64,000 nucleotides of DNA from Minisyncoccota bacterium (GTDB taxonomy: Bacteria > Patescibacteriota > Minisyncoccia > Phycocordibacterales > UBA9973). The notes below the pieces were generated by a model. It was not told the DNA's origin and did not search any database. It worked only from the letters and a program-made list of their open reading frames with translations. Below are positions 3,114-31,894 of the stretch, piece by piece. Made by a program: the position numbers and the translations under genes. Numbering within the stretch: the first letter of the stretch is position 1; the number at the start of each line of letters is the position of its first letter. The DNA lies in the NCBI GenBank assembly GCA_041659205.1, contig JBAZYS010000002.1, positions 87,806-151,805 of the forward strand. The letters run 5' to 3'.

Positions 3114-3130
3114 ATAAATTAATTCATAAA

Positions 3131-3224
3131 AGAAATACTTTAAAAGGGTACAGATTTTTTGAAGCTTAAAAAATCCTGAAGTTTTCGTGTCGCCACACTC
3201 AAAACCCCCTTTTAAAGTATTTCT
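3131..3224 (+). repeat. intergenic palindromic repeat family 1, copy A: conserved core GGTACAGATTTTTTGAAGCTTAAAAAATCCTGAAG...AAAACCCC enclosed by an 18-bp perfect inverted repeat
   Basis: The core at 3149..3206 recurs at 15340, 28910 (reverse complement), 30838 and 31801. Flanks AGAAATACTTTAAAAGGG (3131..3148) and CCCTTTTAAAGTATTTCT (3207..3224) are perfect inverted repeats. It lies between the convergent 3' ends of CDS 1731..3113 and jag. Confidence 0.8.
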
Positions 3225-3235
3225 TTTATTTTCTT

Positions 3236-4495: not shown

Positions 4496-4711
4496 CTACT
4501 TAACAGGATCTATGTGGTTTTTCTGCCACGGATGACATCGTAAAATACGCAAAAAACCTAAATATATTCCTTTAAAAGGGCCATATTTTTCTATAGCTTG
4601 TTTCGTGTATTCTGAGCAAGTAGGATAAAAAACGCAACTTGGTTTTAAAAAAATTGATATATATTTCTGGTAAAAATTAACGAATTTTACTGAATATTGT
4701 TTTAACTTCAT
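4496..4711 (-). CDS. yidD: membrane protein insertion efficiency factor YidD
   Basis: VFYPTCSEYTKQAIEKYG matches the YidD CxFYPSCSEY motif. It overlaps the rnpA 3' end, as is typical. Confidence 0.85.
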   Translation of the reverse strand: MKLKQYSVKFVNFYQKYISIFLKPSCVFYPTCSEYTKQAIEKYGPFKGIYLGFLRILRCHPWQKNHIDPVK

Positions 4712-5051
4712 TTTCTAAAATAGACACATCTGTTTCGACTTTTTTAAAAATAAAAACACCGCTAAGGGGCGCCGGCAAACTTTCTACATACTTAATAAGT
4801 ATAGAATATAGAAGTCTCCTTAGGGAATTCCTTTTTACTGCGAGTTTAGCAATACTTTTAGGGACGATAACAGAAATACGTGGGGATAAAGAGTTTTGCG
4901 ATGAGCAGCTGGCTTCTGTGTTGCTCATAAAAAACTCTTTAGCCCCATGTATTATATATTTAAAAGTTAAATTGAGAGAATTAATAAACTTACCTTCTTT
5001 AAAGATTTTTTCTACTGCCTTTTTATCGGCCCTATTTTTTTTAGGAAGCAT
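4677..5051 (-). CDS. rnpA: ribonuclease P protein component
   Basis: Basic ~120-aa protein immediately downstream of rpmH. RnpA-like RRLLY/KR-rich signature. Confidence 0.8.
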   Translation of the reverse strand: MLPKKNRADKKAVEKIFKEGKFINSLNLTFKYIIHGAKEFFMSNTEASCSSQNSLSPRISVIVPKSIAKLAVKRNSLRRLLYSILIKYVESLPAPLSGVFIFKKVETDVSILENEVKTIFSKIR

Positions 5052-5070
5052 TTTGTGAACAAAGAGAGAA

Positions 5071-5205
5071 CTATACAGATAATTTCTTTCTACCTTTTTG
5101 GCGTCTTCTTTTTAAGACCTTTTTGCCAGTCTTTATTCTTGATCTAACCAAAAACCCATGGGCTCGGGCTCTTTTTCTCTTTTTAGGTTGGTATGTTTGT
5201 GACAT
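5071..5205 (-). CDS. rpmH: 50S ribosomal protein L34 (44 aa), absent from the ORF track
   Basis: Manual translation of the minus strand gives [44 protein letters not shown], the canonical L34 sequence. It is upstream of rnpA as in most bacteria. Confidence 0.9.
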
Positions 5206-5297
5206 ATAGTAGAGTCTATAATATTATAGGGAATAAATCAAATATAAAAATTTAATCTATAATAAAAAACAGAACCCGTTCTTTAATAGCTTTTCAG

Positions 5298-5317
5298 TTA
5301 TCCACAGCTTATCAACA
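5298..5317 (+). promoter_or_regulatory. DnaA boxes in the rpmH-dnaA intergenic region: consensus TTATCCACA (5298..5306) and TTATCAACA (5309..5317)
   Basis: Exact 9-mer DnaA box consensus followed 2 bp later by a one-mismatch box, about 60 bp upstream of the dnaA start. Classic oriC / dnaA autoregulation position. Confidence 0.7.
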
Positions 5318-5372
5318 GAGTTAGTAAGCTTTTAAAGTGTATTCTATTTACGAAATAGTATAATATGAAACT

Positions 5373-6713
5373 ATGAATACGAAACAGTTGTGGAAAAATT
5401 GTTTGATGAAAATTGAGTCTGGAATGTCTAAAGCAAACTTCAGTACTTGGTTTAAAAATACATCAATTATTAAAGAGGAAACTGGAATTATTTACATCGG
5501 AGTTCCAAATGAGTTTGTCCGCGATTGGTTAATGAATAAATATCACAAACTCATCACTAAAACTATTGCTGAAGCTTATGAGAGTATGCGAGCAGTAGAA
5601 TACACAATTACTAAAATAGAAACTCCGGCCCAAGAAGTAATAACGATCACGGAAAGTGCAGAAAAAGAGCTTCCTTTGAGAGATTTATATATAAACCCAG
5701 GAGACAATCTAAATCCCCGTTACCGTTTCAACTCTTTTATTGTTGGCGCCTTCAACGAGCTCGCTTATGCAGCGTCTCAAGCGATAATAGACTCACCTGG
5801 AACTAAATATAATCCATTTTTTATTTACGGAGGGACTGGTCTTGGAAAAACTCACTTAATCCAAGCAGTAGGTAACTCAATAAAAGACAAGTATCCTGAC
5901 AAAAAAGTGCATTATATGACCTTAGAAAAATTTGCAACTGATTTTATCAACTCCCTTCAGAGCAATAAAGCAAACTCTTTCAAAGAAAAGTATCGTAAAT
6001 ATGATTTATTGATCATCGATGATATCCAATTCATAGGAAAAATGGAAAAAATTCAAGAAGAACTTTTCCATACATTTAATACTTTCTATGAAAACAATAA
6101 ACAAATCATTTTTTCTTCTGATAAACATCCAAACTATATTCCTGAGCTCGCGGACCGTTTAAAGTCACGTTTTGCGGCAGGAATGATAGTAGATATCTCT
6201 GAACCAGAATATGAATCTCGTCTCGCAATCATAAAAGTAAAACTGCGAGAATTAAATATTGTATTAGACGAAGATTTAATAGAATACGTTGCAGGTGCAA
6301 TGCAGGGAAATATCCGAGAGTTGGAGGGGAGCTTAAACCTTATAGTTTGCCAATATCGCTTGAAAAATAAGGCTCCAACCCTTGTAGAAGTAAAAAATTT
6401 ACTTAAAAACAACATGAAGCCAAAGAAAAACATGGCAATAAAAGATGTTGTAAAAATAGTAGCTGAATATTATAAACTAGAAGAAGCTTCTGTTTATGAA
6501 AAAACTAGAAAAAAAGAAATTGTGAAAGCTAGACAAGTTATTATGTATCTACTACGAGAAGATTTTAGTGTTTCTTACCCTTTAATTGGTCAGAAATTGG
6601 GAGGAAAAGACCATACCACAGTCATGCATTCATGTGTAAAAATAAAAGCAGACTTAAAAAATGATTCTCAGTTAATCCAAGAGTTAGAGCAAATAAGAAT
6701 TATGTTTAAATAG
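5373..6713 (+). CDS. dnaA: chromosomal replication initiator DnaA
   Basis: AAA+ Walker A GGTGLGKTHL. C-terminal DNA-binding domain. Conserved rpmH-dnaA-dnaN synteny. Confidence 0.95.
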   Translation: MNTKQLWKNCLMKIESGMSKANFSTWFKNTSIIKEETGIIYIGVPNEFVRDWLMNKYHKLITKTIAEAYESMRAVEYTITKIETPAQEVITITESAEKELPLRDLYINPGDNLNPRYRFNSFIVGAFNELAYAASQAIIDSPGTKYNPFFIYGGTGLGKTHLIQAVGNSIKDKYPDKKVHYMTLEKFATDFINSLQSNKANSFKEKYRKYDLLIIDDIQFIGKMEKIQEELFHTFNTFYENNKQIIFSSDKHPNYIPELADRLKSRFAAGMIVDISEPEYESRLAIIKVKLRELNIVLDEDLIEYVAGAMQGNIRELEGSLNLIVCQYRLKNKAPTLVEVKNLLKNNMKPKKNMAIKDVVKIVAEYYKLEEASVYEKTRKKEIVKARQVIMYLLREDFSVSYPLIGQKLGGKDHTTVMHSCVKIKADLKNDSQLIQELEQIRIMFK

Positions 6714-6951
6714 TTGTTGATAAAGAGTTTAAAACAATACAATAAGTAGTGAAAAGATTGTTAATTAAAAATGATAAAAAATGGTTTTAAATTAAAAAAA
6801 TAATTATTAAAATATTTAAAATAAGTTATTAGTTTTTTAAAAAAAATTAAAACATAAAAAAACATTATAAAATAAGACTTTAAATGTTTATCCACTTATT
6901 AACAGAACTAATATTATTAATAAATTATATATAGAAGATATAAACAAATAC
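6714..6951 (+). promoter_or_regulatory. extremely AT-rich dnaA-dnaN spacer (candidate oriC DNA-unwinding element) with a DnaA box TTATCCACT at 6888..6896
   Basis: About 240 bp at >85% AT with A/T tracts, plus one near-consensus DnaA box. Confidence 0.5.
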
Positions 6952-8049
6952 ATGAAAATAGAATGCTCGACAGAAAAAATAAAAAATGTGATTTCTCAAG
7001 TGGAAAGAATTACTGGTAAAAATTTAACCCTTCCAATTCTAAATTCCATCTTATTAATTGCTTCCGGTAATTCTTTAAAATTTAGATCTACAAATTTAAG
7101 TCTTGGTATAGAGATTGAAATCCCGGCAAAAATTGAGAAAGAAGGGAATCTTGCAATATCTGGTTCTGTTTTAAACGCAGTTTTTTCAAACGTTTCCCAA
7201 AATGAAAATGTATTTCTAGAAGAAAAAGATGGAAATCTTTTGATTAAAACAAAAAAAAGCCAAATAAAGCTTAAAAGTCAGCCTTGTGAAGATTTTCCCA
7301 CAATACCAATGGTTACAGGAAATAGTTTTGAAATAGAATCAAGTAAGTTAATAGATGGGATAAAATCAGTTTATTATAGTTCTTCTGTTTCAGATATTAA
7401 ACCTGAAATATCAAGTGTTTTTCTTTATACAAATGACGAGAATCTTGTTTTTGTTTCCACTGATTCGTTTAGGCTTGCAGAAAAGAAGGTCAAAGTAAAA
7501 GGGTTTGAGGAGATTTTAGGAATTCTTATTCCATATAAAAACATAGGAGAAATATTGAAAGTTTTTGGAGAAGTTAAAGGTGTAATTAAAGTGTGTTTTA
7601 ATAAAAACCAAATTTCTTTTTCTTCTGAAAATACCTACCTTACATCCCGAATAATAGACGGAATATTTCCAGATTACAGACAAATTATTCCAAAAGAATC
7701 CTCAACCGATGTGGTGGTGCTCAAGCAAGATTTATTGAATGCTTTAAAACTTTCAAATATTTTTTCAGATAAGTTTAACCAAGTTAATCTTAAAATTAAC
7801 CCCAAAGAAAAAGTTTTTGAGCTCTCTTCATCAAATAATGATATTGGTGAAAATAAAACATATTTAGATGCTGTGTTGAGAGGGGAGGAAGTAGAACTTG
7901 GGTTTAATTATAAGTATTTTTTAGATTGTTTTCAGTCAATCAATACAGACAGTGTTAACATAAAGTTGTCCGGGGCTTCTCGTCCAATAGTTATCTCTCC
8001 TGTTTCTGATTCATCCTTTACTTATCTCATAATGCCAATGAATAGATAA
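6952..8049 (+). CDS. dnaN: DNA polymerase III beta subunit (sliding clamp)
   Basis: Three-domain ~365 aa protein directly after dnaA with a typical DnaN N-terminus. Confidence 0.9.
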   Translation: MKIECSTEKIKNVISQVERITGKNLTLPILNSILLIASGNSLKFRSTNLSLGIEIEIPAKIEKEGNLAISGSVLNAVFSNVSQNENVFLEEKDGNLLIKTKKSQIKLKSQPCEDFPTIPMVTGNSFEIESSKLIDGIKSVYYSSSVSDIKPEISSVFLYTNDENLVFVSTDSFRLAEKKVKVKGFEEILGILIPYKNIGEILKVFGEVKGVIKVCFNKNQISFSSENTYLTSRIIDGIFPDYRQIIPKESSTDVVVLKQDLLNALKLSNIFSDKFNQVNLKINPKEKVFELSSSNNDIGENKTYLDAVLRGEEVELGFNYKYFLDCFQSINTDSVNIKLSGASRPIVISPVSDSSFTYLIMPMNR

Positions 8050-12258: not shown

Positions 12259-12374
12259 ATTTTTTTTAATTTAAATTTTTAATAAGCGACCAAAAACAAA
12301 CGCTATCTAATTTATTCTTTTGTAACAAAATCCAAAAGGATTGGCAATAGCAAATGTGGATAACCTAACTATAG

Positions 12375-12470
12375 AAATATAGTCTTTTAAAAAGCATTGC
12401 GACCAGCTACCGAGCGAGTATAGCAAATTTTCAGCAGAAAATTATGTGCGGTTTTTAAAAGACTATATTT
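12375..12470 (+). repeat. GC-rich miniature repeat family 2, copy 1, enclosed by a 19-bp perfect inverted repeat
   Basis: Core 12394..12451 (GCATTGCGACCAGCTACCGAGCGAGTATAGCAAATTTTCAGCAGAAAATTATGTGCGG) shares AATTTTTCAGCAGAAAAATAT and a GC-rich hairpin with the copies at 54148 and 62386. Flanks AAATATAGTCTTTTAAAAA and TTTTTAAAAGACTATATTT are perfect inverted repeats; the right one overlaps the ruvC stop. Confidence 0.7.
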
Positions 12471-12958
12471 TTATAGTTTTGCCCTTTTAAATGTGCAAAA
12501 GCTGTAATAGCGATGGCAATAGCATCCAATTCATCGTCTGACTTTTTAGAATTATCTATATCCACTAATATTTTTACCATTTTTATTATTTGTTCTTTAT
12601 TTGCTTTTCCATAACCCGTGGTAGCTATTTTTATTTGAGGGGGGGAGGCTTCAAATATTTTTAATCCAGCATTTGTGGCTTCATAAATTACTACCCCGCG
12701 TGCTTCGGCGACGTGCATGACTGTTTTATGATTAGTAGTTAAAAATAAAGTTTCTATCGAAAGAACATCAGGTTTGTATTTTTTTATTATTTTTTTTACT
12801 TCTTCACCGATTAAAAGTAATCGTTCATTAAATTCTAATTTGGCAGAAGTTTTAAAGCATTCTGAAAAAATTACAGCTTCTTTTTTATCACCTTGTTTTT
12901 TCTCTAAGACCGCGACACCGAGGCGTTCATATCCTGGATCTATTCCTAAAATTATCAT
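12455..12958 (-). CDS. ruvC: crossover junction endodeoxyribonuclease RuvC
   Basis: MIILGIDPGYERLGVAVLE with RNase-H-like fold catalytic Asp/Glu. 167 aa. Confidence 0.9.
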   Translation of the reverse strand: MIILGIDPGYERLGVAVLEKKQGDKKEAVIFSECFKTSAKLEFNERLLLIGEEVKKIIKKYKPDVLSIETLFLTTNHKTVMHVAEARGVVIYEATNAGLKIFEASPPQIKIATTGYGKANKEQIIKMVKILVDIDNSKKSDDELDAIAIAITAFAHLKGQNYKNIVF

Positions 12959-15095: not shown

Positions 15096-15318
15096 TTATA
15101 GCATTTGTTGTTCGCCTTATATAGTATAATAGTTTTAAGAGATTAAGCAGAAGGCATTAATCTCTAAGCAATCAGCCACAGGTTATACGAATTTGCATAG
15201 GACGTTTTGGTTACTTTTATTAGTTCACTGGAACCATCCTATAATACTTTGTTACTTTTGGGGCCCAGCTCCGAAAGGATTGTTTAGAGATTAATGCTTT
15301 TTTTATTTGTAAAATTAA

Positions 15319-15420
15319 ACCAAGAATAAAGTTTTTGTCGGTACGGATTTTTTGAAGCTTAAAAAATCCTGAAATTCTCAGCTCGTCAGCTTCGAAACCC
15401 CTTAAAAACTTTTTCTTGGT
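15319..15420 (+). repeat. intergenic palindromic repeat family 1, copy B, enclosed by a 17/18-bp inverted repeat
   Basis: Core 15340..15403 (GGTACGGATTTTTTGAAGCTTAAAAAATCCTGAAATTCTCAGCTCGTCAGCTTCGAAACCCCTTAAAAAC). Flanks ACCAAGAATAAAGTTTTT and AAAAACTTTTTCTTGGT. It sits at the 3' end of pilB. ORF-track ORF 15220..15435 is a translation of this element. Confidence 0.8.
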
Positions 15421-15424
15421 TTTT

Positions 15425-17122
15425 TTACTCTTCATTTAAATCAACGACACTTTGTACTTCTTCGAAAGAAGTAATCCCATTTAGCATTTTTACGAGGCCA
15501 TCTTGGCGCATTGAAAGTATGCCTTGAGCACTCGCTACTTTTTTGATTTCTCTTTCGCTTGGATTTTCTGGCATTATTTTTTCTATAGACTCGTCAGTTT
15601 TTATTGCTTCAAAGATACCAATTCTGCCTTTAAAGCCTGTCATGTTACATTTTTCACAACCAACTGCTGAAAAAAGCTTAAAGGGCACATCTGGATTTAT
15701 ATTATAATTTGAAAGACTTTTTCCTTCAGCTTTAATACTAGCTAAAACACCTCTCATGGTTGCTTCTTCTTCTTTACTTGGAATTTTTTCTTTTTTACAA
15801 AATTGGCAAAGCTTACGGACCAAACGTTGAGCAATAGAAAGTGACAATGCGGAGACTAAAATTTTAGGATTTACACCAAGGTCAATCAGGCGGGGAATAA
15901 CTCCGGCTGCATTGTTTGTATGGAGGGTAGAGAAAACTATGTGACCCGTAAGTGCTGATTGCACCGCAATCTCGGCTGTTTCTTTGTCGCGGATTTCTCC
16001 GACCATTACCACATCTGGGTCCTGACGAAGAGCTGAACGCAAGCCCTCGACGAAAGTGTATCCTTTCTTCATGTCAGTTTGGGTTTGAGTGATACCTACT
16101 AAATGATATTCAACAGGGTCCTCAATCGTTATAATTTTTATTTCTGGGGAATATATTTTTTTCAAAAAGGCATAAAGAGTAGTGGTTTTTCCTGATCCAG
16201 TCGGACCAGTGACGAGAATTAATCCATTTGGTTTTGATATTTCTTGTTGGATAACCGAAAAAAGAAAAGGTTCAATTCCTATTTCTTCAAGTGGCACTTG
16301 GATTGATTTTGGGTCCAAGATTCTCATGACGATTGATTCACCATAAGATCCAGGAATAAGTGAACTACGAATACTTATTTCGTCTTTTCCTTCTGTGATA
16401 CTAAAACGTCCATCCTGTGCTATTTTGGATGTTAATTTCATTCCTGAAAGAAGTTTTATTCTTGAATTTAACAAATGATAAACATCTGAACCGAAAAATA
16501 AAACATCAATCAAAATTCCGTCCAAACGAAGTCTGAGCCTGCCTCTATCTTCCTCAGGTTCAATATGAATATCAGAAGCTTTAATAGCGATAGCCCCAGC
16601 AAGAATTATTTCTAACATCTTTGAAATTTTATGAATTTTATTTTCTTTCAAGGCTTCCGTAATCATTATTTCAATGTCTTTCATTTTGTGAATCTTCTGA
16701 GCTGTTTCTCTTAAAACTTCTCCAGAAATATCTAATCCTCCAATGGTTGAACTTTCTGCCATTGAAATTTCTTTATATCTTTCCCAGACCTTGTTTATAC
16801 TAGCGGAAGATGCCATATAAAAAGTTGGTACGAGGCTGAGCCTTTCCATGTCATCTTTTAGTCTTTTTATCAAATCGTCAGAAGGGGAACGCAAGGCAAT
16901 AAAAATATTTTTTCCGAAAAGTTTAAAAGGGGCAGCATTTAATTCTCTGCAGTCCTTTTCTGAAATTGCACGAAGAGCCTCATTGTCTATCCCTAAACGA
17001 TAGAGATCAATATAAGGGAGACCATATTTTGATTCTGCCAGGGTGGCTACCAGCTGCTCCTCTTCTTGTTTATGCAAATCTTCGAGTTGTCTATTTTGTT
17101 TTTCTTCATCAAATAAAGGCAT
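15425..17122 (-). CDS. pilB: type IV pilus assembly / type II secretion ATPase (PilB/GspE family)
   Basis: GspE N-terminal domain, Walker A LVTGPTGSGKTTTLYA, C-terminal tetracysteine CEKC... Confidence 0.85.
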   Translation of the reverse strand: MPLFDEEKQNRQLEDLHKQEEEQLVATLAESKYGLPYIDLYRLGIDNEALRAISEKDCRELNAAPFKLFGKNIFIALRSPSDDLIKRLKDDMERLSLVPTFYMASSASINKVWERYKEISMAESSTIGGLDISGEVLRETAQKIHKMKDIEIMITEALKENKIHKISKMLEIILAGAIAIKASDIHIEPEEDRGRLRLRLDGILIDVLFFGSDVYHLLNSRIKLLSGMKLTSKIAQDGRFSITEGKDEISIRSSLIPGSYGESIVMRILDPKSIQVPLEEIGIEPFLFSVIQQEISKPNGLILVTGPTGSGKTTTLYAFLKKIYSPEIKIITIEDPVEYHLVGITQTQTDMKKGYTFVEGLRSALRQDPDVVMVGEIRDKETAEIAVQSALTGHIVFSTLHTNNAAGVIPRLIDLGVNPKILVSALSLSIAQRLVRKLCQFCKKEKIPSKEEEATMRGVLASIKAEGKSLSNYNINPDVPFKLFSAVGCEKCNMTGFKGRIGIFEAIKTDESIEKIMPENPSEREIKKVASAQGILSMRQDGLVKMLNGITSFEEVQSVVDLNEE

Positions 17123-17159: not shown

Positions 17160-19619
17160 ATGCTTGAAGTAAAAAAAGAGAACAAAAAAACATTGGTATT
17201 ACTGGATGCCCATGCAATCATTCATCGTGCTTATCATGCTCTCCCTGAATTTATGTCTAGTAAGGGTGAACCGACTGGCGCACTTTATGGACTTTCTAGT
17301 ATGCTGATGAAAATAATTACTGAGTTGAAGCCCGATTATATTGTTGCTTGTTATGATTTACCCCACAAAACTTTTAGGCATGATGCTTATGAGGGGTACA
17401 AGGCTGGACGTGCAAAAACTGAGGATGCCCTAATTCTACAGCTAAAAAATTCTCGCCAGATTTTCGAGGGTTTTGGTATTCCAATGTATGATGCTATTGG
17501 TTTCGAGGCAGATGATGTTTTGGGAACAATTGTAGAAAAATATAAAAAAGATAAATATTTAAATATTATTATTGCCTCAGGAGATATGGACACGATGCAA
17601 TTAGTCGACGATAAAAAAGTTCAAGTTTATACTTTGAAAAAAGGAATTAACGATACCATTTTATATGACGAAGATGCGGTGGTAAACCGTTTTCATTTTA
17701 AACCTAAATTTTTACCAGACTATAAGGGCCTTCGTGGCGATCCATCGGACAATATTATCGGCATTAAGGGAATAGGGGAAAAGACGGCTGAAATACTAAT
17801 CACAAATTTTGGAACAATAGAAGAAATTTACAAAAAAATCAAAAAAGATGAGGAGGCTTTCAAAAAAGCAGGCATTAGTCCTCGAATGATTGAGTTGCTT
17901 AAAAACAATGAAGAAGAGGCTATGTTTTCAAAAACCCTAGCGACGATTCGAACTGATGCCCCAATTGGCTTTGAAATACCCACAAAGACTTTTTGGGAGA
18001 GTGCGGACTTAAAAAAAATAGAACAAGTTTTCACCACTTTTGAATTTAGGAGTTTGTTCGGACGTCTTAAAAATTTCTTTGGAAATAATACAGAAAAACT
18101 TGAGAAGAAAGATTCTTTGCCCTACGACGGGCTGCAAAATTCTTCTTCTCAAGTTTTTATGGGACCTCATGACGGGTTGCAGAATCTTTCTTCTCAGATT
18201 TCCCCTAAAAAGTTACAAGAAGCGAGTATTGCTTTGTGGTTAATAAATTCGGATATTTCAAATCCAAAATTGGAAGATGTGTTGATGTTTGCAAATACAG
18301 ATTCTTTTGAAGTAGCTTATGATTATATTTTTAAAAAATTAAAAGAAAACAATTTAGAAAAAGTATATGAAGAAATTGAAAAACCCATCATTCCTATAGT
18401 GAGAGAGATGGAAGACTATGGGATTTTGATAGATAAAAAGTATTTTGAAAAACTGTCAAAAGAATATCATACCGAGTTAGATATTTTAACTAAAAGAATA
18501 TACAAGGAGGCGGGCACAGAGTTTAATATTAATTCTCCTAAGCAGTTGGGTGAAGTTATTTTTGGTAAAATGGGGATACTTCCTCCTGGAAAAAGTAAAA
18601 CAAAAAAAAATGCGAGTGGGGGATTTTCTACGAAAGTTTCTGTTTTAGAAGATCTTGAAGAAGATAATCCAATTATAAAAGAAATATTAGCTTATCGAGA
18701 ATTACAAAAATTACTTTCCACCTATATAGATGTTATACCAAAGATGGTGGGAGATGATGGTCGCCTCCATGCTAAATTTTTGCAAAACGGGACAACAACA
18801 GGTAGATTTTCTTCCCAAGATCCCAATTTACAGAATTTACCAATTAAAACAGAGCTTGGTAAAAGAATTCGAGGCGGATTTATCGCTCAAAAGGGTTACA
18901 AGCTTGCTGCTTTTGATTATAGTCAGATTGAGTTGCGAGTGGCCGCAATGCTCTCCGGAGACAAAAAGATGACCCAAATATTTCGCGAGGGAAAAGACAT
19001 TCATGCTGGAGTAGCCTCTTTCGTTTTTAATGTTCCTCTTGAACAGGTTGATTATGAAATGCGTCGGAAAGCAAAAGTAATAAATTTTGGAATTATTTAT
19101 GGTATGGGAGTTTCTGCTTTGCGGAAAAATCTAGGGGGAGCACGTGAAGAAGCCCAAAAGTTTTATGATAATTATTTTAATCAATTTTCAGGTGTTCGGG
19201 ATTATTTAGAAAATGTTAAAAAATATGCGATGCAGCATCATTTTACAGAAACACTTTTTGGCCGAAAGAGATATTTTCCTAATATAAATTCTAGAATTCC
19301 TTTTTTGAAAAATATGGCGGAACGTACTGCCACAAATGCACCCGTTCAAGGTACGGCAACAGCAGATATAATCAAGTTAGCTATAAGGTATGGGGAAGAG
19401 GATTTAAAAAATGCCGGACTTCTGGAAAAGACTCATTTAGTGCTTCAAATTCATGATGAGCTTGTGTATGAAATTGAAGAAAAAGAATTAAAAAAAGCTG
19501 AAAAGATAATAAAAAATGCGATGAACGGAGTTCTAGAGAGGTCTTTTTTACACTACAAAACGGATATTCCGCTTGAAATCCACTCTGGTTCCGGGGACAA
19601 TTTTATGGAAGTTAAGTGA
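17160..19619 (+). CDS. polA: DNA polymerase I (5'-3' exonuclease + polymerase domains)
   Basis: N-terminal 5' nuclease (LLDAHAIIHRAYHAL) and C-terminal pol A family motifs (RRKAKVINFGIIYG, QIHDELV). Start moved to the ATG at 17160 (MLEVKK...); the ORF-track start at 17043 overlaps pilB. Confidence 0.9.
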   Translation: MLEVKKENKKTLVLLDAHAIIHRAYHALPEFMSSKGEPTGALYGLSSMLMKIITELKPDYIVACYDLPHKTFRHDAYEGYKAGRAKTEDALILQLKNSRQIFEGFGIPMYDAIGFEADDVLGTIVEKYKKDKYLNIIIASGDMDTMQLVDDKKVQVYTLKKGINDTILYDEDAVVNRFHFKPKFLPDYKGLRGDPSDNIIGIKGIGEKTAEILITNFGTIEEIYKKIKKDEEAFKKAGISPRMIELLKNNEEEAMFSKTLATIRTDAPIGFEIPTKTFWESADLKKIEQVFTTFEFRSLFGRLKNFFGNNTEKLEKKDSLPYDGLQNSSSQVFMGPHDGLQNLSSQISPKKLQEASIALWLINSDISNPKLEDVLMFANTDSFEVAYDYIFKKLKENNLEKVYEEIEKPIIPIVREMEDYGILIDKKYFEKLSKEYHTELDILTKRIYKEAGTEFNINSPKQLGEVIFGKMGILPPGKSKTKKNASGGFSTKVSVLEDLEEDNPIIKEILAYRELQKLLSTYIDVIPKMVGDDGRLHAKFLQNGTTTGRFSSQDPNLQNLPIKTELGKRIRGGFIAQKGYKLAAFDYSQIELRVAAMLSGDKKMTQIFREGKDIHAGVASFVFNVPLEQVDYEMRRKAKVINFGIIYGMGVSALRKNLGGAREEAQKFYDNYFNQFSGVRDYLENVKKYAMQHHFTETLFGRKRYFPNINSRIPFLKNMAERTATNAPVQGTATADIIKLAIRYGEEDLKNAGLLEKTHLVLQIHDELVYEIEEKELKKAEKIIKNAMNGVLERSFLHYKTDIPLEIHSGSGDNFMEVK
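18099..18197 (+). mobile_element. in-frame palindromic insertion element within the polA inter-domain linker (encodes ...EKKDSLPYDGLQNSSSQVFMGPHDGLQNLSSQ...)
   Basis: A perfect 16-bp inverted repeat TGAGAAGAAAGATTCT (18101..18116) pairs with AGAATCTTTCTTCTCA (18181..18196). The right half is internally duplicated (18117..18153 resembles 18160..18197). A 51-nt stretch (aligned without gaps) is 45/51 identical to uvrA 24768..24822. Confidence 0.7.
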
Positions 19620-24314: not shown

Positions 24315-26981
24315 ATGAAAACAGAGAAAAATATAGAAAAAATAACAGTAAAAGGGGCACGGACTCATAACCTAAAGAATATAAACGTCGAAATGCCAAG
24401 GAATAAAATGGTAGTTATTACTGGTGTTTCGGGATCTGGAAAGTCATCCCTTGCTTTCGATACTATTTTTGCGGAGGGACAGCGCAGGTATATAGAGTCT
24501 CTCTCTTCTTATGCGCGACAATTTTTAAACCAAATGCCGAAACCAGACGTGGATGAGATTACGGGGCTTTCGCCAGCAATTTCTATTGACCAAAAATCAC
24601 GTTCCAATAATCCTCGTTCAACAGTAGCAACGATTACAGAGATTTATGATTACCTCCGAGTGATGTATGCCCGTATCGGGCATCCGCATTGCCCCGAGTG
24701 TGGAGAAGAAATTAAAAAACTTTCAAATGAAGAAATTTTAAATTTTGTTTTAGAAAAAATAAAGAATTTAGAGAAGAAGAATTTTTTGCCCTACGACGAT
24801 CTGCAGAATTCCTCTTCTCAAGGTCTTAAGAATGGTAAAAGAAAAATTATGGGGGTGGAGTTTGATGAAACCCAAATTAGTATTTTTTCTCCTATTGTTC
24901 GTGGGCGGAAAGGGGAATATTATCAATTACTTTATGATTTACTTGGAAAAGGTTTTGCGGAAATCCGTCTCGATGGAGTGATAAAGAAACTTCGCGAGCA
25001 AATTACCCTTTCTAAAAACAAAAAACATAATATAGATATAATGGTGGATACTTTTGCGGTACATGAATTTAAGGATAGTCCTGAAGTAAGTCGGATGAGA
25101 CTTTCCGAAGCCTTAGAGCATGCTTTAATTGAGTCCGATGGTTTGGTGACGATTAAAATTGCAGATGATGAATTTATTATGTCCGCAAAGTTTGCTTGTA
25201 AGAATGATGGATTTTCTTTTCCAGAAGTTGAGCCTAGACTTTTTTCTTTCAACTCTCCTTATGGAGCATGTCCGACTTGTAATGGGCTCGGGTCAAAATA
25301 TTTTATGGGTGATGAGCCTTGCGATACTTGTCATGGAGCACGCTTGCGTCCTGAAGCTTTAAATGTTTTTCTGGAGGCAGATGTCGTGGGGGAGAAGGGC
25401 AAAGTCAAAAAGAGTAAAGTAAATATTTTAGACCTTGCTTCACTTTCAATAAAAGACGCACATGATTTCTTCAAGAATTTAAAACTTACAGATCAAGAAA
25501 AAGAAATATCTGTTCCCGTGGTGCGAGAGATTGAAGCTCGGTTACAATTTATGTTAGATGTTGGACTTGATTATTTGCAACTTTCACGCAAAGCCAACAC
25601 TCTCTCTGGAGGAGAAGCGCAGCGTATTCGCCTCGCCTCCCAGCTCGGCTCAAGGCTTGTGGGAGCACTTTACGTGCTTGATGAGCCGACGATAGGGCTT
25701 CATCAGCGAGACAATGATAGACTCATAAAAACCTTACAAAACCTTCGTGATTTAGGGAATACAATATTAATTGTGGAGCATGACGAAGACACGATTTATG
25801 CCTCAGATTATATTGTAGATATTGGACACAAAGCCGGAGTACACGGCGGAGAAGTTATTGTTTCTGGCTACCTTGAAGATTTATTAACGGCAAAAAAGAA
25901 TACAAATAATTCTCGAACGCTTGCCTATTTAAGAGAAGAAGCGAAAATTGAAATTCCTAAAAAGCGACGAGAGGCAAAAGGAGTTCTACGGATTGCTGGT
26001 GGAAATATTTTTAACATAAATAATTTAAATGTAGAAATACCTCTTGGGGTGATGACATCTATCACCGGAGTATCCGGTTCTGGGAAAAGTTCTTTTATGT
26101 ATGAAATTCTTTATAAAAATCTTCAAGCTCGTTATGAAAGAAAATACCGCACTGCCAAAGTTTTTAATTGTTCTTCATTTTCTGGAACCGAATATTTATC
26201 TCGCGCTATTTTAATTGATCAATCACCGATCGGCCGGACTCCTCGTTCCAACGTGGCTACTTATACTGGCGCGTTTACCCATATTCGAGATATCTTTGCT
26301 ACGACCGAGGAAGCAAGACTCCGTGGATGGAAAGCAAATCGTTTTTCTTTTAACGTAAAAGGTGGACGTTGTGAAGCTTGCGAAGGAAATGGAGAAATAG
26401 CGGTAGAGATGCATTTCTTGCCGACCGTTTATGTTACTTGTGATGTTTGTGATGGTAAACGTTTTAATAAAGATACCCTCACTGTAAAATATAAAAAGAA
26501 AAATATTTATGAAGTGCTTCGCATGACCGTAGAAAATGGATTAATCTTTTTTAAAGATATTCCTTCTATTTCAGACAGACTTCAAACACTTATGGATGTA
26601 GGCCTTGGTTATCTTGAGCTTGGACAATCCGCAACCACGCTTTCAGGGGGAGAAGCTCAGAGAGTAAAAATATCTAGTGAACTTTATCGTCCACACTTAG
26701 AGAAAACCATTTACCTTTTGGATGAACCGACGGTTGGTTTACATTATGATGATGTTCATAAACTTTTAGAAGTCTTAAATAAATTAGTTTCTAAAGGGAA
26801 TACCGTTGTACTCATTGAACACAATTTGGACATTGTGAAAAGCTCAGATTATATAATAGATATTGGTCCTGAGGGAGGAGTAAATGGTGGTAATATAGTA
26901 GCTAAGGGGACACCAGAAGAGGTGGCTAATAATGCTAAAAGTTATACTGGAAAATATCTCAAAAAGGTTTTACGCAAATAG
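24315..26981 (+). CDS. uvrA: excinuclease ABC subunit A
   Basis: [12 protein letters not shown]-terminus. Two ABC ATPase modules ([20 protein letters not shown]) and zinc fingers. Start set at ATG 24315 ([19 protein letters not shown]); the ORF track gives 24294. Confidence 0.95.
24768..24822 (+). mobile_element. in-frame palindromic insertion element within uvrA (encodes ...[17 protein letters not shown]...), homologous to the polA insertion
   Basis: GAGAAGAAGAATT (24771..24783) and AATTCCTCTTCTC (24807..24819) form a 12/13-bp inverted repeat around TTTTGCCCTACGACGATCTGCAG. It is near-identical at the nucleotide level to polA 18099..18153. Confidence 0.7.
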
Positions 26982-26985
26982 AAAT

Positions 26986-28329
26986 ATGTCAAATCCATTA
27001 AATATACAATCATATAAAATCGCCTCATCGGCGATCCGCCGTAGAGGCGGAAATTTAAAACTTCCTGACAAGCCCGGTGTGTACTTTTTCTTAAAAAATG
27101 GAGAAATTTTATATATTGGTAAAGCAACATCACTCAAAGATAGAGTAAAAAGTTATCTTGGTAAAGATCTAATAGAAACAAGAGGTCCAATTCTTGTGGA
27201 TATGGTTTTCAAGGCGGATAAAATTGATTGGCAGGAGACTGACAGCGTACTTGAAGCATTGATACTTGAGGCAAATTTAATTAAAAAATATCAGCCTAAA
27301 TACAATACAAAAGAAAAATCAGATAAAAGTTTTAATTATGTTTGCATAACGAAGGAAAAATTACCTAAAGTAATCATTAAGAGAGGGAAAGAGATAAAAA
27401 ACTTTACCAAACAAAAATTTTCTCAGGTCCTCGGAAAAAATCCCCAGACCATTCAAAAATCTTTGTTTGGCAAAGTCTTTGGTCCATACCCTAATAGTTC
27501 TCAACTTCGAGAAGCTTTAAAAATAGTAAGAAGAATTTTCCCGTTCTTGGACGACAAGAGTAAAAATTATCTTGAATTTTACAAACAAATAAATTTAGTA
27601 CCAGATTTGGATGATAAAAAATTGTATTTGCAAAATATTCAAAACATTAAATTGTTTTTTGAAGGTAAAAAGAAAAAAGTTTTAAAAAATTTACAGAAAG
27701 AAATGAATGCATATTCTAAATTGCATGAATTTGAAAAGGCAGGAGAAGTAAAAAGACAAATTTTTGCACTTAAACATATTAATGACGTAGCTTTAATAAA
27801 AAACAGCCCCGCTTCTCATAATTCTTTCTCACTACGTACTGCCAAGCAGAATTCCTCGCTTGAAAAAATTACAAGAAGTGGGGTCTTCCGAATTGAAGCT
27901 TATGACATAGCCCACATGGGTGGTAAAAACATGGTTGGGGTTATGACTGTGGTGGAAGATGGGGAAGTGGCAAAAAGTGAATACAAAAAATTTAAGATAA
28001 GAACCCAAAGTGATGCAAATGATACAGGTGCGTTAAAAGAAGTGTTAGAAAGGCGTCTAACACATACAGAATGGCCTTATCCTAGTTTAATCGTTGTGGA
28101 TGGTGGGATAGCTCAAATAAATGCCACAAAAAAGGTATTGGCTAATTTGAAAATAAATATTCCCATAGTATCAGTCTTAAAAGATGAACGACATAAACCA
28201 AAAGCTATTATGGGAGAGAAGAATTTTGGTTTAAAATATGAGAGAGAGATTTTACTTGCAAATAGTGAAGCGCACAGGTTTGCTATTGCTTATCATAAAA
28301 ATATGCGTAACAGAAACTTTTTAAAATAA
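26986..28329 (+). CDS. uvrC: excinuclease ABC subunit C (short form lacking the C-terminal HhH region)
   Basis: GIY-YIG N-terminus (GVYFFLKNGEILYIGKATSLKDRVKSY). UVR-like helix. RNase-H-like endonuclease region (RIEAYDIAHMGG). Start set to ATG 26986, not the overlapping 26932. Confidence 0.85.
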   Translation: MSNPLNIQSYKIASSAIRRRGGNLKLPDKPGVYFFLKNGEILYIGKATSLKDRVKSYLGKDLIETRGPILVDMVFKADKIDWQETDSVLEALILEANLIKKYQPKYNTKEKSDKSFNYVCITKEKLPKVIIKRGKEIKNFTKQKFSQVLGKNPQTIQKSLFGKVFGPYPNSSQLREALKIVRRIFPFLDDKSKNYLEFYKQINLVPDLDDKKLYLQNIQNIKLFFEGKKKKVLKNLQKEMNAYSKLHEFEKAGEVKRQIFALKHINDVALIKNSPASHNSFSLRTAKQNSSLEKITRSGVFRIEAYDIAHMGGKNMVGVMTVVEDGEVAKSEYKKFKIRTQSDANDTGALKEVLERRLTHTEWPYPSLIVVDGGIAQINATKKVLANLKINIPIVSVLKDERHKPKAIMGEKNFGLKYEREILLANSEAHRFAIAYHKNMRNRNFLK

Positions 28330-28802
28330 TGAAAAAAGAAAACGTTTTAATCTTACATAATATACGAAGCGTCTCCAACGTCGGTGCGATGTTTCGTACG
28401 GCAGACGCAGCCGGAATAAATAAAATTTATTTGACTGGTTACACCCCAGCACCGCTTGATCGTTTCGGTAGGAAAAGAGGAGACTTGGCAAAGTCAGCAC
28501 TCGGTGCTGAAGAATTTGTGCCCTGGGAACAAAAGAAAAGTATTTCTGCACTACTTACTAAATTAAAGAAGGAAAATTTTTTAATTATTGGCATAGAGCA
28601 AGACAAAAAGTCTATTGATTATAAAAAGGTAAAAATTAAACAAAAGAATGCATTCTTGGTGGGTGAAGAGGTGGCTGGAATTTCTAAAGAAAATCTAAAA
28701 AAGTGCGATGTTATTGCTGAAATACCAATGCGTGGGAAAAAAGAATCCTTAAATGTATCTGTGGCGCTGGGGATCGCTTTATTTAGAATATGTAACTTAT
28801 AA
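28329..28802 (+). CDS. SPOUT-superfamily RNA 2'-O-methyltransferase (TrmH/SpoU family)
   Basis: SpoU motifs: LVGEEVAGIS, AEIPMRGKKESLNVSVALGIALF. Confidence 0.8.
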   Translation: MKKENVLILHNIRSVSNVGAMFRTADAAGINKIYLTGYTPAPLDRFGRKRGDLAKSALGAEEFVPWEQKKSISALLTKLKKENFLIIGIEQDKKSIDYKKVKIKQKNAFLVGEEVAGISKENLKKCDVIAEIPMRGKKESLNVSVALGIALFRICNL

Positions 28803-28895
28803 TGTCCGCATAAAATTTTGCTGAATTTTTGCTCAAGACTCGGCCCGTCGGCCTCCGTAGCTATTATAAATTTCATATTCTAAATTATTGGATAA

Positions 28896-28999
28896 GATAA
28901 AGAATAAAGTTTTTAAGGGGTTTCAAAGCTGACGAGCTGAGAATTTCAGGATTTTTTAAGCTTCAAAAAATCCGTACCGACAAAAATTTTATTTTTTAT
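28896..28999 (-). repeat. intergenic palindromic repeat family 1, copy C (reverse-complement orientation)
   Basis: The reverse complement of 28910..28978 reads GGTACGGATTTTTTGAAGCTTAAAAAATCCTGAAATTCTCAGCTCGTCAGCTTTGAAACCCCTTAAAAAC. Imperfect AT-rich inverted flanks. It lies between the convergent 3' ends of trmH-like and mutM. Confidence 0.8.
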
Positions 29000-29001
29000 C
29001 T

Positions 29002-29874
29002 TTACTTCTGATGCACTGAGCAAAAGTGGGCACTACGGCCGTTTACTACTATTCTTTTTATGATGCCCCTACAGCCTATTTTTCTACATTTTTCTCCTGT
29101 GCGTCTGTAGGCTTCGTGGTGCATTTGGAATTTACCTGGCAGGCCATAAATATTTTTATAATCTGACATTGAGTCTCCCCCGAAATCTATACCTTTTTTC
29201 AGTGTTTCTTTTATTGCTTTGAATATTAGTTCTAGCTCCTTTTTGTTGATTTTTGAAACTTTTCGTTCTGGGTGCACACTAGCTCGCCAGAGTATTTCGT
29301 CGGAATAAATATTTCCAATACCAGCGATGATACTCTGATTTATCAGAACTGTTTTTATCTTTCCGTTTGGTTTTTTATTTAATTGCTCATTTAGTTTTTC
29401 TAAAGTGAAATTTTTTTCTAGGGGCTCTGGACCGATATTATTTAGATGTCTTGTGTTATGTGCAGTTTTTGTATCAAGAAGAGTAATCTTTCCAAATTTT
29501 CTTAAATCAGAAAATACTAAATATTTTTTATTAGAAAGGGAAAAAACAACATGGGCAAATTTAATTTTGGGATCCTTCCCATAAAAAAGGTACCCTGTCA
29601 TTTTTAAATGTACGAGTATCGTTTTACTTGCCCCGATATGGCGTGGGCCCCCAGAAAGATTTATCAAAATATTTTTTGCTCGTCTTTCTATAGACAAAAC
29701 TTTTTTCCCTATAATTTCTTTCCTGAATACAGTAAAAAACTTAGGATTAGCAATTGATTCCTTTTGGCGTTTGTCTTTAGTGGACAAATCTGTCCAAACA
29801 TTTGTTATTTTTAGACCTAAAATTGTCTTTTCCAGGCCTCGTTTTGTTGTTTCTACTTCTGGTAATTCTGGCAT
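29002..29874 (-). CDS. mutM: formamidopyrimidine-DNA glycosylase (Fpg/MutM family)
   Basis: N-terminal MPELPEVE catalytic Pro2/Glu3. C-terminal zinc finger CRKIGCRG...C..H. Confidence 0.9.
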   Translation of the reverse strand: MPELPEVETTKRGLEKTILGLKITNVWTDLSTKDKRQKESIANPKFFTVFRKEIIGKKVLSIERRAKNILINLSGGPRHIGASKTILVHLKMTGYLFYGKDPKIKFAHVVFSLSNKKYLVFSDLRKFGKITLLDTKTAHNTRHLNNIGPEPLEKNFTLEKLNEQLNKKPNGKIKTVLINQSIIAGIGNIYSDEILWRASVHPERKVSKINKKELELIFKAIKETLKKGIDFGGDSMSDYKNIYGLPGKFQMHHEAYRRTGEKCRKIGCRGIIKRIVVNGRSAHFCSVHQK

Positions 29875-29956: not shown

Positions 29957-30817
29957 ATGTTAATGAAAAGATTACGATTTATATTATTTATTTTTTCAAT
30001 ATTTTTCCTGGTGCCTCTTTCAAAGAGCCAAGCTAGTGTTGCCGCGCCTATTAAAATTTTATTAGTTCCAGGGCATGATGATGAAGTTTGGGGAGCAAAA
30101 TATAGGAATGTAAAAGAGGCAGATATGAATTTGGCAGTAGCTACCCAGATTTATAATCTCTTAAAGAAAGATAAAAGATTTGATGTCTATGTTACTCGTG
30201 ACAATAATGGTTATACAAAAGATTTTGCAGATTATTTCCCTGCACAAAGAGATAAAATTTTAGCTTTTGAACAAAATGCTAAAAAAATAATGAATAGTAA
30301 TATTTCTAGTGGTAATTTTGTTCAGAAAGAGAACGCACCACATCACACCGTGAGTGAAGACATTGCCTTACGTTTGTATGGTTTTAATAAATGGGCGAAT
30401 GAAAATAAAATAGATGCAGTAGTTCATTTTCATTTTAATGATTATCCGCGTTCCAATAGCCAAAAAATTGGCAAGTACAAAGGATTTGCCATCTATATGC
30501 CAGATGGGCAATTTGTAAATTCTAGGGAAAGTGGACAGCTCGCCGCTAATATTTTTACCCAGTTGCATAAAAAATATGCATCCAGTGACTGGAAACCAGA
30601 AGCAGGAGGACTTGTACCAGACCAAAAGCTCATTGCTATTGGTGCGAATAATACATTGAATGCTTCCGTGCGCTCTGTTCTAATAGAATATGGATATGTT
30701 TATGAAAAGAAATTTAGAACAAAGGCTGCGCGTCTTTCCGCTTATAAAAACATGGCAAGTCTTACCTCAACAGGAATAAAAAATTATTTTTTCCCCAAAA
30801 AAGTTAGCACAAAATAA
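29957..30817 (+). CDS. secreted N-acetylmuramoyl-L-alanine amidase (Amidase_3 family)
   Basis: Signal peptide. LLVPGHDDEVWGAKY...YVTRDNN matches the amidase_3 zinc-binding core. Confidence 0.8.
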   Translation: MLMKRLRFILFIFSIFFLVPLSKSQASVAAPIKILLVPGHDDEVWGAKYRNVKEADMNLAVATQIYNLLKKDKRFDVYVTRDNNGYTKDFADYFPAQRDKILAFEQNAKKIMNSNISSGNFVQKENAPHHTVSEDIALRLYGFNKWANENKIDAVVHFHFNDYPRSNSQKIGKYKGFAIYMPDGQFVNSRESGQLAANIFTQLHKKYASSDWKPEAGGLVPDQKLIAIGANNTLNASVRSVLIEYGYVYEKKFRTKAARLSAYKNMASLTSTGIKNYFFPKKVSTK

Positions 30818-30923
30818 ATAAAAAGATTTTTGCCGGTACGAATTTTTTGAAGCTTAAAAAATTCTGAAATTCTCGGCTCGTCAGCCTCGAAACCCCTTAA
30901 AAACCTTTTTATTTATTTTGTAC
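30807..30923 (+). repeat. intergenic palindromic repeat family 1, copy D, enclosed by a 19-bp inverted repeat that overlaps both convergent stop codons
   Basis: Core 30838..30904 (GGTACGAATTTTTTGAAGCTTAAAAAATTCTGAAATTCTCGGCTCGTCAGCCTCGAAACCCCTTAAAAAC). Flanks GCACAAAATAAATAAAAAG and CTTTTTATTTATTTTGTAC. The left flank contains the amidase stop and the right flank the ruvA stop. Confidence 0.8.
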
Positions 30924-31479
30924 TTAATATTTTTAGTGCCTCACGGATTCTGGTGTTCATGGTTGCGTCAGGGGAGCACTTCTTTAATGCCTCCCGTGCT
31001 TCGTTTTGAGAATAACCTAGTGATTTTAAAGCCTCGAGTGCATCCAATTCTTCTTTAAGGGAACTTTCTCCTTTATCTTCTCCTATCTTGTCTCGCAACT
31101 CTATCACAATTTTTTCTGCCGTTTTTTTACCTATACCAGATATTTTTGTAAGGTATGAGACGTCTCCAGTCCCAATAGCTTTTTTGAGTGTTTCGATTGA
31201 AGCAATTCCAAGGATTGCGAGAGCCGAGCGTGGCCCAATGCCAGATACATTTATGAGCATTTCAAAGAATTCTAATTCTTCTCGGTCTAGAAAGCCGTAT
31301 AGGTCGAGTGCATCTTCCCGCACTCGGGTATGAATGGAGAGCATTATTTCATCACCGACTTTTTTTACTTTAGATAAAGTGTCTGGAGAGGCACTTATTT
31401 TATAACCAACTCCGCCCGTCTCCACTATTAAGAATTTATCTGTTTTTAATATAATTTTTCCTTTTATGCTTCCGATCAT
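30913..31479 (-). CDS. ruvA: Holliday junction DNA helicase RuvA
   Basis: MIGSIKGKI N-terminal OB domain. Two HhH motifs (GIGPRSALAIL, GIGKKTAEKI). C-terminal RuvB-binding domain. Confidence 0.9.
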   Translation of the reverse strand: MIGSIKGKIILKTDKFLIVETGGVGYKISASPDTLSKVKKVGDEIMLSIHTRVREDALDLYGFLDREELEFFEMLINVSGIGPRSALAILGIASIETLKKAIGTGDVSYLTKISGIGKKTAEKIVIELRDKIGEDKGESSLKEELDALEALKSLGYSQNEAREALKKCSPDATMNTRIREALKILSTK

Positions 31480-31532: not shown

Positions 31533-31784
31533 ATGCCAATAACACAATCAGCTAAAAAAGCAATCCGAAGTTCCCTTCGCAAGAAGGCCTTTAATGATGG
31601 ACGTAAGAAAATAATGAAGGAGGTAATCAAAAAGATTGAGAAAATTGCTAAAACCGACAAGGCTGAAGCTGCAAAAATGCTTTCTTCTGCTTTCCAAGCT
31701 ATAGATAAATCTGCACAAAAAGGTGTTATTAAGAAAAATAACGCTGCTCGTAAGAAATCTCGTTTATCAAAGTTGGTCAAATAA
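31533..31784 (+). CDS. rpsT: 30S ribosomal protein S20
   Basis: MPITQSAKKAIRSSLRKKAFN... Lys/Ala-rich 83 aa typical of S20. Confidence 0.9.
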   Translation: MPITQSAKKAIRSSLRKKAFNDGRKKIMKEVIKKIEKIAKTDKAEAAKMLSSAFQAIDKSAQKGVIKKNNAARKKSRLSKLVK

Positions 31785-31885
31785 AGAATAATATTTTTTT
31801 GGTACAGATTTTTTGAAGCTTAAAAAATCTTGAAGTTTGCTCGCCGTCGCTCGCAAAACCCCTTCAAAATAATATTCTTTATTTT
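31780..31885 (+). repeat. intergenic palindromic repeat family 1, copy E
   Basis: Core 31801..31866 (GGTACAGATTTTTTGAAGCTTAAAAAATCTTGAAGTTTGCTCGCCGTCGCTCGCAAAACCCCTTCAAAAT). Near-perfect inverted flanks AAATAAAGAATAATATTTT and AAAATAATATTCTTTATTTT. The left flank overlaps the rpsT stop. Confidence 0.8.
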
Positions 31886-31894
31886 TATAAATTT

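Follow-up and report, generated by a model that had tools for sequence, protein, structure and literature searches.

The window, as we call the whole stretch of DNA analysed here, is 64 kb of a Paceibacterota (Patescibacteria) genome obtained from a metagenome (contig JBAZYS010000002.1; G+C 36%). Within it lie polA (17160-19619, + strand), which encodes an 819-residue DNA polymerase I with 5'-nuclease and polymerase domains, and uvrA (24315-26981, +), which encodes the 888-residue excinuclease ABC subunit A. The polA product is identical to P0121, annotated as 'DNA polymerase [Candidatus Paceibacterota bacterium]'; it has the Pfam domains 5_3_exonuc_N, 5_3_exonuc and DNA_pol_A and can be aligned to Pol I structures in the PDB. 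The uvrA product is identical to P0001, from the same contig, and can likewise be aligned to solved UvrA structures in the PDB. Both genes are hosts to a short palindromic DNA repeat, here named T1, and both open reading frames (ORFs) are full length despite it. A preliminary description made from the sequence alone had proposed that this repeat is a mobile or recombining element, inserted in frame into surface loops in the manner of the Rickettsia palindromic elements (RPEs), or alternatively that it encodes a docking peptide selected in two repair enzymes. For comparison, relatives were sampled as ~20-kb windows confined to the polA-uvrABC neighbourhood, amounting to ~280 kb from roughly a dozen related genomes, and the syntenic loci polA, uvrB, uvrA, uvrC, spoU, fpg, amidase and ruvA were compared among them.

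The T1 hairpin repeat in polA and uvrA

A T1 unit is ~54 nt long and consists of purine-rich arms of the GAGAAGAAGAATTCT type flanking a 19-nt G+C-rich core. Unit 1 of polA lies at 18099-18153 on the + strand (nhmmer match 18097-18156, 72 bits), with left arm CTTGAGAAGAAAGATTCT (18099-18116), core TTGCCCTACGACGGGCTGC (18117-18135) and right arm AAAATTCTTCTTCTCAAG (18136-18153), and its in-frame reading is LEKKDSLPYDGLQNSSSQ. It is followed at 18154-18197 (+) by a spacer and a partial second unit with a diverged core, GGGACCTCATGACGGGTTGC, and the right arm AGAATCTTTCTTCTCA; the nhmmer match to this part is partial (18169-18200, model positions 29-60). Two T1 units are also present in the PolA orthologue P0123. 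The polA segment is probably a copy, one and a half units long, of a short DNA repeat that is non-autonomous and forms a hairpin. The uvrA unit lies at 24768-24822 (+, 66 bits) and is translated in the same frame as the polA copy, giving an 18-residue reading.

The palindrome arms in the polA linker are as the preliminary description had them, with TGAGAAGAAAGATTCT (18101-18116) and AGAATCTTTCTTCTCA (18181-18196) forming an inverted repeat in which 16 of 16 positions pair. It was also right that both copies are in frame, encoding EKKDSLPYDGLQNSSSQ in polA and a 17-residue peptide in uvrA, with an extra PHDGLQNLSSQ in polA. The match it gave between the two genes, 45/51, was nearly right, the actual count over that span being 44/51. 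Over the units as delimited here (18099-18153 and 24768-24822), 46 of 55 bases are identical, while the best unrelated 51-mer match within the window reaches only 28/51. A 37-nt degenerate pattern found the polA and uvrA units and nothing else in the window, and a looser core pattern found these two and the polA half unit; both patterns gave ~0 matches in shuffled sequence.

When the outer arms are included, the polA unit (18091-18161) forms a 19-bp stem with one mismatch and folds much better than shuffled sequence (z = -6.0). The orthologous polA copy in L002, one of the related loci, forms a perfect 25-bp stem (z = -10.2), and the uvrA unit folds more weakly (z = -2.3). The arms of T1 are 15-25 bp, and the arm sequences GAGAAGAAGAATTCT and AGAATTCTTCTTCTC, common to T1 copies, constitute terminal inverted repeats. 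T1 units were not flagged by a terminator consensus scan, and a search of Rfam gave no family at the gathering threshold and noise only at E values up to 10.

When eight T1 copies were aligned, 88% of cells were paired, as against 41-59% when the partners were slid, and eight pairs were changed on both sides, mostly in the outer arms. Among four polA orthologues the outer-arm pairs GGAGAAAC/GTTTCTCC, AAAGAAAC/GTTTCTTT and AGAAAAAC/GTTTTTAT replace one another, and in the polA arms a silent GAG-to-GAA change on the left is matched by a Ser-to-Phe change on the right. Beyond the family consensus the outer arms are specific to each copy yet complementary; for two further families described below, T3 and T4, they show little or no similarity between copies. 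The T1 copy in an intergenic spacer of locus L010, which is untranslated, is conserved as well as the translated copies, and the T1 peptide varies, with LPCDGL and LPYDDL among its versions. The constraint acts on the nucleic acid and not on the peptide, which is a passive by-product.

Insertion sites and their turnover among orthologues

In alignments to solved structures, none of the UvrA chains has an equivalent of residues 148-180 of this UvrA; the alignment runs up to the helix that follows the first zinc-finger CxxC and restarts at the first strand of the UvrB-binding domain. The alignment to solved Pol I runs through the 5'-nuclease domain to FEFRSLFGRL and restarts ~90 residues further on. 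In the AlphaFold model of PolA (mean predicted local distance difference test score, pLDDT, 71.8), residues 309-345, exactly the stretch encoded by the element, score below 50 and are predicted to have no secondary structure, lying between two folded parts. The AlphaFold model of UvrA was unusable (mean pLDDT 38.6), and placement of the UvrA insert therefore rests on the alignment to solved structures.

To these we added alignments of 120 UvrA orthologues (85-94% identical) and 120 PolA orthologues (77-85% identical), in which each of the two sites proved hypervariable. The UvrA site is unoccupied in 43 of the 120. Where it is filled, the recurrent inserts include T1 (LPYDGLQNSSSQ), T5 (GLLQPSAGTFPVQNSSS), T6 (GLTLPGVPGGTHTVQNSSS), T7 and types rich in G+C. 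In PolA the length of the linker ranges between 17 and 57 residues, and the linker contains T1, T2, T3, T4 or other sequences. Only 4/120 UvrA and ~7/120 PolA close orthologues carry the T1 peptide, the rest having unrelated inserts or none. The exchange of inserts is seen in proteins that hardly differ elsewhere: UvrA P0054, with an empty site, and P0006, with T5, are 98.2% identical outside the site, and PolA P0136, with a T1-like insert, and P0145, with an unrelated one, are 98.8% identical outside it. At the DNA level, uvrA of L021 and L020 is 93% identical and differs by a 75-nt hairpin insert, the filled-empty junction falling in the purine run AAGAAG/AAGAAC (junction at the slash), where a short direct repeat is indistinguishable from low complexity. 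Since very close relatives have different elements, or none, at the same sites, turnover must be fast. The same pair of uvrA genes differs by a second indel of 39 nt at alignment columns 1089-1127, which is A+T-rich and not a hairpin; palindromes are therefore not the source of all length variation.

Hairpin families across genes, spacers and genomes

The distribution of elements was obtained from profile searches and from clustering of all hairpins in the window and the fetched loci. T1 (60-72 bits across its copies) was found in polA of the window, L002, L006 and L010 and in uvrA of the window, L010 and L011. L010 has a further copy in the spacer between its amidase and ruvA genes, and its uvrA additionally has a diverged T1 unit in reversed orientation. 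T1 is one of a set of hairpin repeat families in Paceibacterota genomes. T3 occurs in polA, uvrB and uvrC, including uvrC of the window (gene 26932-28329), where the element at 27401-27476 (+) has the in-frame reading NFTKQKFSQVLGKNPQTIQKSLFGKV, a 21-bp stem (z = -4.9) and a match to the T3 model at E = 9e-13; the family is also in polA of L011, L012 and L015, and uvrC of L014 and L010 has it in reversed orientation. T4, which has a 62-nt core, is in polA, uvrB and uvrC; T5 in uvrA, uvrC and one intergenic site; and T6 in polA, uvrA and uvrC of a single genome, L019. Elements are translated in both orientations, T2 being T3 reversed and T4r being T4 reversed. The T4 core has two open forward frames, of which the proteins show only the hydrophilic one, the open hydrophobic frame being unused.

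Copying inside a genome has been recent: the T4 copies in uvrB and uvrC of L012 are 99% identical, while same-site copies in different genomes are 72-85% identical. Among 28 contigs that contain both polA and uvrA, the element type is the same in the two genes in three (the window, L010 and L019), which exceeds permuted pairing (p ~0.002-0.01). From this within-genome sharing across loci it follows that sequence passes between loci, by transposition or conversion. The permissive sites are the linker in polA, the point in uvrA where the UvrB-binding domain begins, one uvrB and two uvrC positions, and the spacer between amidase and ruvA. In the window, three of four in-ORF hairpins are in polA, uvrA and uvrC, and with 11 of ~61 genes in DNA metabolism the hypergeometric p is ~0.016, for a region that was chosen for these genes.

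The fourth is an in-frame hairpin insert at 4881-4947 (-) in rnpA (gene 4677-5051, -), with a 17-bp stem and a G+C-rich loop (z = -7.2). Its reading is GAKEFFMSNTEASCSSQNSLSPR, and the match to Pfam Ribonuclease_P spreads 110 residues over 95 profile positions. A second copy of it was not found in the window or in the relatives' fetched DNA. The second uvrC site of the window (27800-27870) codes for NSFSLRTAKQNSSLEK and has an arm-like motif, AGAATTCCTC, and a weak fold; it may be a decayed element. Intact hairpins are present at that site in L010, L012, L014, L016, L019 and L020.

The amidase/ruvA spacer contains, depending on the genome, T1, a member of a ~113-nt hairpin family, one of a third family, or no element. 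In the window, a palindrome at 30806-30924 extends with its arms over the 3' ends of the convergent amidase (29957-30817) and ruvA (30913-31479, -) genes, which gives both proteins the terminal residues STK*. The usual end of RuvA is GGK* (L010, L015, L020), and one flank may have been copied onto the other. Intergenic elements adjoin the 3' ends of convergent genes. The ~113-nt family to which this palindrome belongs has window copies at 3124-3236, 15317-15429, 28894-29002 (reverse), 30806-30924 and 31778-31890, and others in L011, L014 and L016. Its core is gccggtacggattttttgaagcttaaaaaatcctgaa...gctcgccgtcgctcgc...aaaccccttaaaaac, it is always between genes, and its complementary outer arms of 13-26 nt are copy-specific; a whole-window Rfam scan gave no match to it at the gathering threshold. 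A second intergenic hairpin family, whose copies share aattttc(a/t)gc(a/t)gaaaat, some of them having ctcggcccgtcggcctccgtagc as well, lies at 12367-12478, 28779-28887 and 62379-62468 of the window and at 16756-16856 of L011. The GGCC-CGTC-GGCC mini-hairpin seen in this second family is also found inside the polA insert of L014.

A few further observations concern the surroundings. The likely replication origin region is at 4677-8049, with rnpA, yidC, a gene for an R3H (Jag-like) protein, dnaA (5373-6713) and dnaN (6952-8049), which puts the hairpin-rich polA-uvrABC cluster ~10-25 kb from the likely origin. The gene at 41295-44567 (-) encodes a 1089-residue protein with DUF11 and InlB B-repeat-like domains; the tandem DNA repeats inside it (families D2-D5) are ~237-258 nt long and 77-86% identical. 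Outside the phylum, three Rhizobiales contigs (L001 2856-2881, L004 213-238 and L008 875-900) contain the 26-nt GACGGCTTGCAGAATTCTTCTTCTCA, which matches the right half of T1; these sites are intergenic, beside a terminator-like hairpin and without the left arm, and about one chance match is expected. Scans of viral contigs for the T1, T4 and T3 cores gave 0 matches. A search of protein representatives with the 33-residue insert gave only an unrelated repeat protein, and a word-index protein search with a 42-residue construct of two T1 readings gave no candidates.

Origin of the elements and relation to known systems

These observations make it probable that T1 is a non-autonomous palindromic repeat, comparable to RPEs or to repetitive extragenic palindromic (REP) elements, that is passively translated. 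Each testable part of the mobile or recombining element proposed in the preliminary description held. The segment is an insertion relative to relatives, being without a counterpart in solved UvrA and Pol I structures and in many close orthologues; the same element occurs at non-homologous places, in polA, uvrA and an intergenic spacer; computed folds are better than those of shuffles throughout (z -2.3 to -10.2) and the arms covary; and in PolA the predicted model places it in a low-confidence, coil-like linker. Copies are duplicated from locus to locus within a genome and persist where they are harmless, which within genes means in frame, with an open hydrophilic reading, in unstructured linkers or surface loops. 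The arm complementarity, the copy-specific outer arms and perhaps the inversion of cores and the copying between loci appear to be products of DNA-level processes acting on hairpins. Candidate processes would be template switching during replication and short-patch conversion between elements with common arms, and the shared purine-rich arms could serve as the homology for exchange of cores between loci. The window data are compatible with a dedicated transposase elsewhere in the genome.

Several points weigh against this interpretation. A Pfam scan of 50 window ORFs gave no transposase or RAYT-like domain, and neither an annotated transposase nor a parent insertion sequence was present in the window or the fetched loci. 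No clear target-site duplication was seen at the purine-run junction, leaving strict transposition unsupported, and the alleles compared could be read with either polarity, as insertion into empty sites or as deletion from filled ones. The copy number of T1 is low: the 64-kb window has 2.5 units, and the ~280 kb from related genomes has eight full copies. Exact-pattern scans of genome and metagenome collections, which diverged copies would escape and which did not include the source genome, gave no genuine matches beyond the polA orthologues L006 and L002 (L007 being identical with L002); the remaining matches, namely the Rhizobiales sites in L001, L004 and L008 and those in L003, L005 and L009, are probably due to chance. 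Of the three matches in element type between polA and uvrA, two are independent, the window and L010 being close relatives that count as one event. Finally, the paired arm changes could also reflect selection for a functional hairpin.

That last possibility can be stated more generally. The hairpins might be nucleic-acid structures kept by selection, pausing or attenuating transcription or translation between domains, protecting mRNA, or binding a protein that regulates repair genes, with dispersal a secondary matter. It would fit the maintenance of complementarity by paired changes, including the pair of one silent and one amino-acid change, the near-perfect 17-27 bp stems of many copies, the intergenic copies at 3' ends of convergent genes, where terminators sit, and the clustering in the polA-uvrB-uvrA-uvrC neighbourhood. 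However, more than a third of the UvrA orthologues (43/120) do without any element, and the filled sites hold sequence-unrelated hairpins of varied length, so that no specific structure is required; T1 was not terminator-like in the scan and belongs to no Rfam family; and template switching yields the same paired changes without selection (PMC8794818). We consider a selected hairpin quite unlikely. Selection on the peptide, as a docking or interaction module in two repair enzymes, is hardly credible, even though polA and uvrA use one and the same reading frame for it and their products both function in excision repair. Near-identical orthologues lack the peptide or have unrelated ones in its place, it is found in few UvrA and PolA proteins, it tolerates residue changes (LPCDGL, LPYDDL), the prediction for its PolA copy is an unstructured segment, conservation is no lower in the intergenic copy, which is not translated, and conservation tracks DNA pairing rather than codons; the docking alternative of the preliminary description is accordingly not supported.

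Two simpler histories would dispense with a repeat family or with transfer between loci, and both seem to us very improbable. In one, a single ectopic gene conversion or recombination between polA and uvrA produced the two copies, which are 6.7 kb apart on the same strand, have purine-rich flanks in common and are the only places where T1 occurs in the window. The T1 copy in the intergenic spacer of L010 already contradicts this, as do L011, where uvrA has T1 while polA has T3, and the L006 contig, where polA has T1 while uvrA (P0037) has T7; four other families, moreover, have the same multi-gene spread. In the other, a palindrome arose locally at each site by template switching. That every copy has outer arms of its own which nevertheless pair, that the second polA right arm perfectly complements the diverged left arm, and that the window palindrome extends into the convergent amidase and ruvA genes, both ending in STK*, are all in its favour, but it cannot give rise to the same cores of 19 to 62 nt in different genes (46/55 identity for T1, 99% for T4). 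Local template switching probably acts on the arms and leaves the shared cores unexplained. Three further candidates were rejected. An assembly or adapter artefact was considered, the core having PstI and EcoRI sites, but independent assemblies from NCBI, JGI, ENA and Logan show the element again, in frame and in varied form. Indels and swaps of whole cores make up the differences, not the adenine-specific substitutions of a diversity-generating retroelement target, and the segment is far too short, and without matching motifs, for an intein or intron remnant.

A version of the mobile-repeat interpretation in which no transposase is involved deserves mention, although we think it rather unlikely. 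Elements that share purine-rich arms would, between distant loci, exchange, invert and copy their G+C-rich cores by template switching or short-patch conversion, and the arms would grow by copying of one flank onto the other, overwriting coding sequence; the STK* ends and the variable residues that flank the inserts might be traces of this. If so, the cassette sites in polA, uvrA, uvrB and uvrC would be self-sustaining, repair-linked mobile DNA in Patescibacteria, which might bear on the palindromic repeats inside excision-repair genes of several phyla. Because near-identical genes have different inserts, outer arms are copy-specific and complementary, and copies in two genes are 99% identical, these loci are a good system for distinguishing transposase action from template switching in the movement of short hairpin repeats, and also for asking why excision-repair genes recur as hosts. 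They provide a natural series of filled, empty and swapped alleles for studying how insertions are tolerated by PolA and UvrA. Length variation and odd low-complexity inserts in the core repair enzymes of these genomes are explained by the repeats, which annotators and structure modellers should expect.

RPEs (Ogata et al.; summarised in PMC10969869) are palindromic repeats found in frame in many Rickettsia genes. T1 is like them in having palindromic copies at many places, in frame in unrelated and intact housekeeping genes, with the peptide at a spot that the fold tolerates; the host genome is reduced, and no transposase is known for RPEs. The likeness to RPEs is one of behaviour and not of membership in RPE families: T1 is ~54 nt whereas RPEs are ~100-150 bp, the phylum is Patescibacteria, and no sequence relationship is shown, no RPE sequences having been compared. 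RPEs number tens per genome; the 64 kb read from the present genome contain 2.5 T1 units. Here, in addition, several families compete for few sites and replace one another among near-identical genes, and the complementary outer arms differ from copy to copy.

The behaviour of T1 is even more like that of the intragenic REPs of Di Nocera, De Gregorio and Rocco (2013, PMC3733652), which lie inside uvrA, uvrB, uvrD, polA, recBCD and dnaE in several phyla. Their GTAG and CGTC REPs are mostly downstream of genes with a subset inside ORFs, the CGTC type has no dedicated transposase, and different REPs are found at about the same site in orthologous recB genes of Xanthomonas (PMC3733652). Read as its reverse complement, GCCCGTCGTAGGGC, the T1 core includes CGTC as well as GTAG, and CGTCGTAG within it is inside the loop; CGTC is also present in the T4 core and the intergenic families, while T3, T5 and T6 lack the tetranucleotides. 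A tagged REP measures 20-40 bp, with a stem of 8-9 bp, a loop of 4-5 nt and its tag unpaired at the end, whereas in T1 arms of 15-25 bp enclose a 19-nt core and the tetranucleotides fall in the loop. The GTAG type is accompanied by a REP-associated tyrosine transposase (RAYT; IS200-like), and no RAYT was seen in the 50 window ORFs scanned.

[quoted passage not shown] It differs in being smaller than typical MITEs (70-300 bp) and in that no cognate insertion sequence, RAYT or clear target-site duplication was found. The arms of inverted repeats are documented to be homogenised and lengthened by template switching, which also inverts spacers (PMC8794818, PMC8604942, PMC13100816). Such quasipalindrome mutagenesis fits the paired arm changes, the arm growth and the spacer inversion, coding sequence included (PMC8794818, PMC8604942, PMC13100816), but it is a mutational process and does not alone move a core to another gene.

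Our literature search found no report of such elements in Patescibacteria or the Candidate Phyla Radiation. In sum, repeats in uvrA, uvrB and polA were known from other phyla, and in the new phylum the unusual features are the lack of a visible transposase, the cassette-like sites and the copy-specific arms. The present elements would thus extend in-frame palindromic repeats, known mainly from Rickettsia, from the REPs of Proteobacteria and from a few other phyla, to the Candidate Phyla Radiation.

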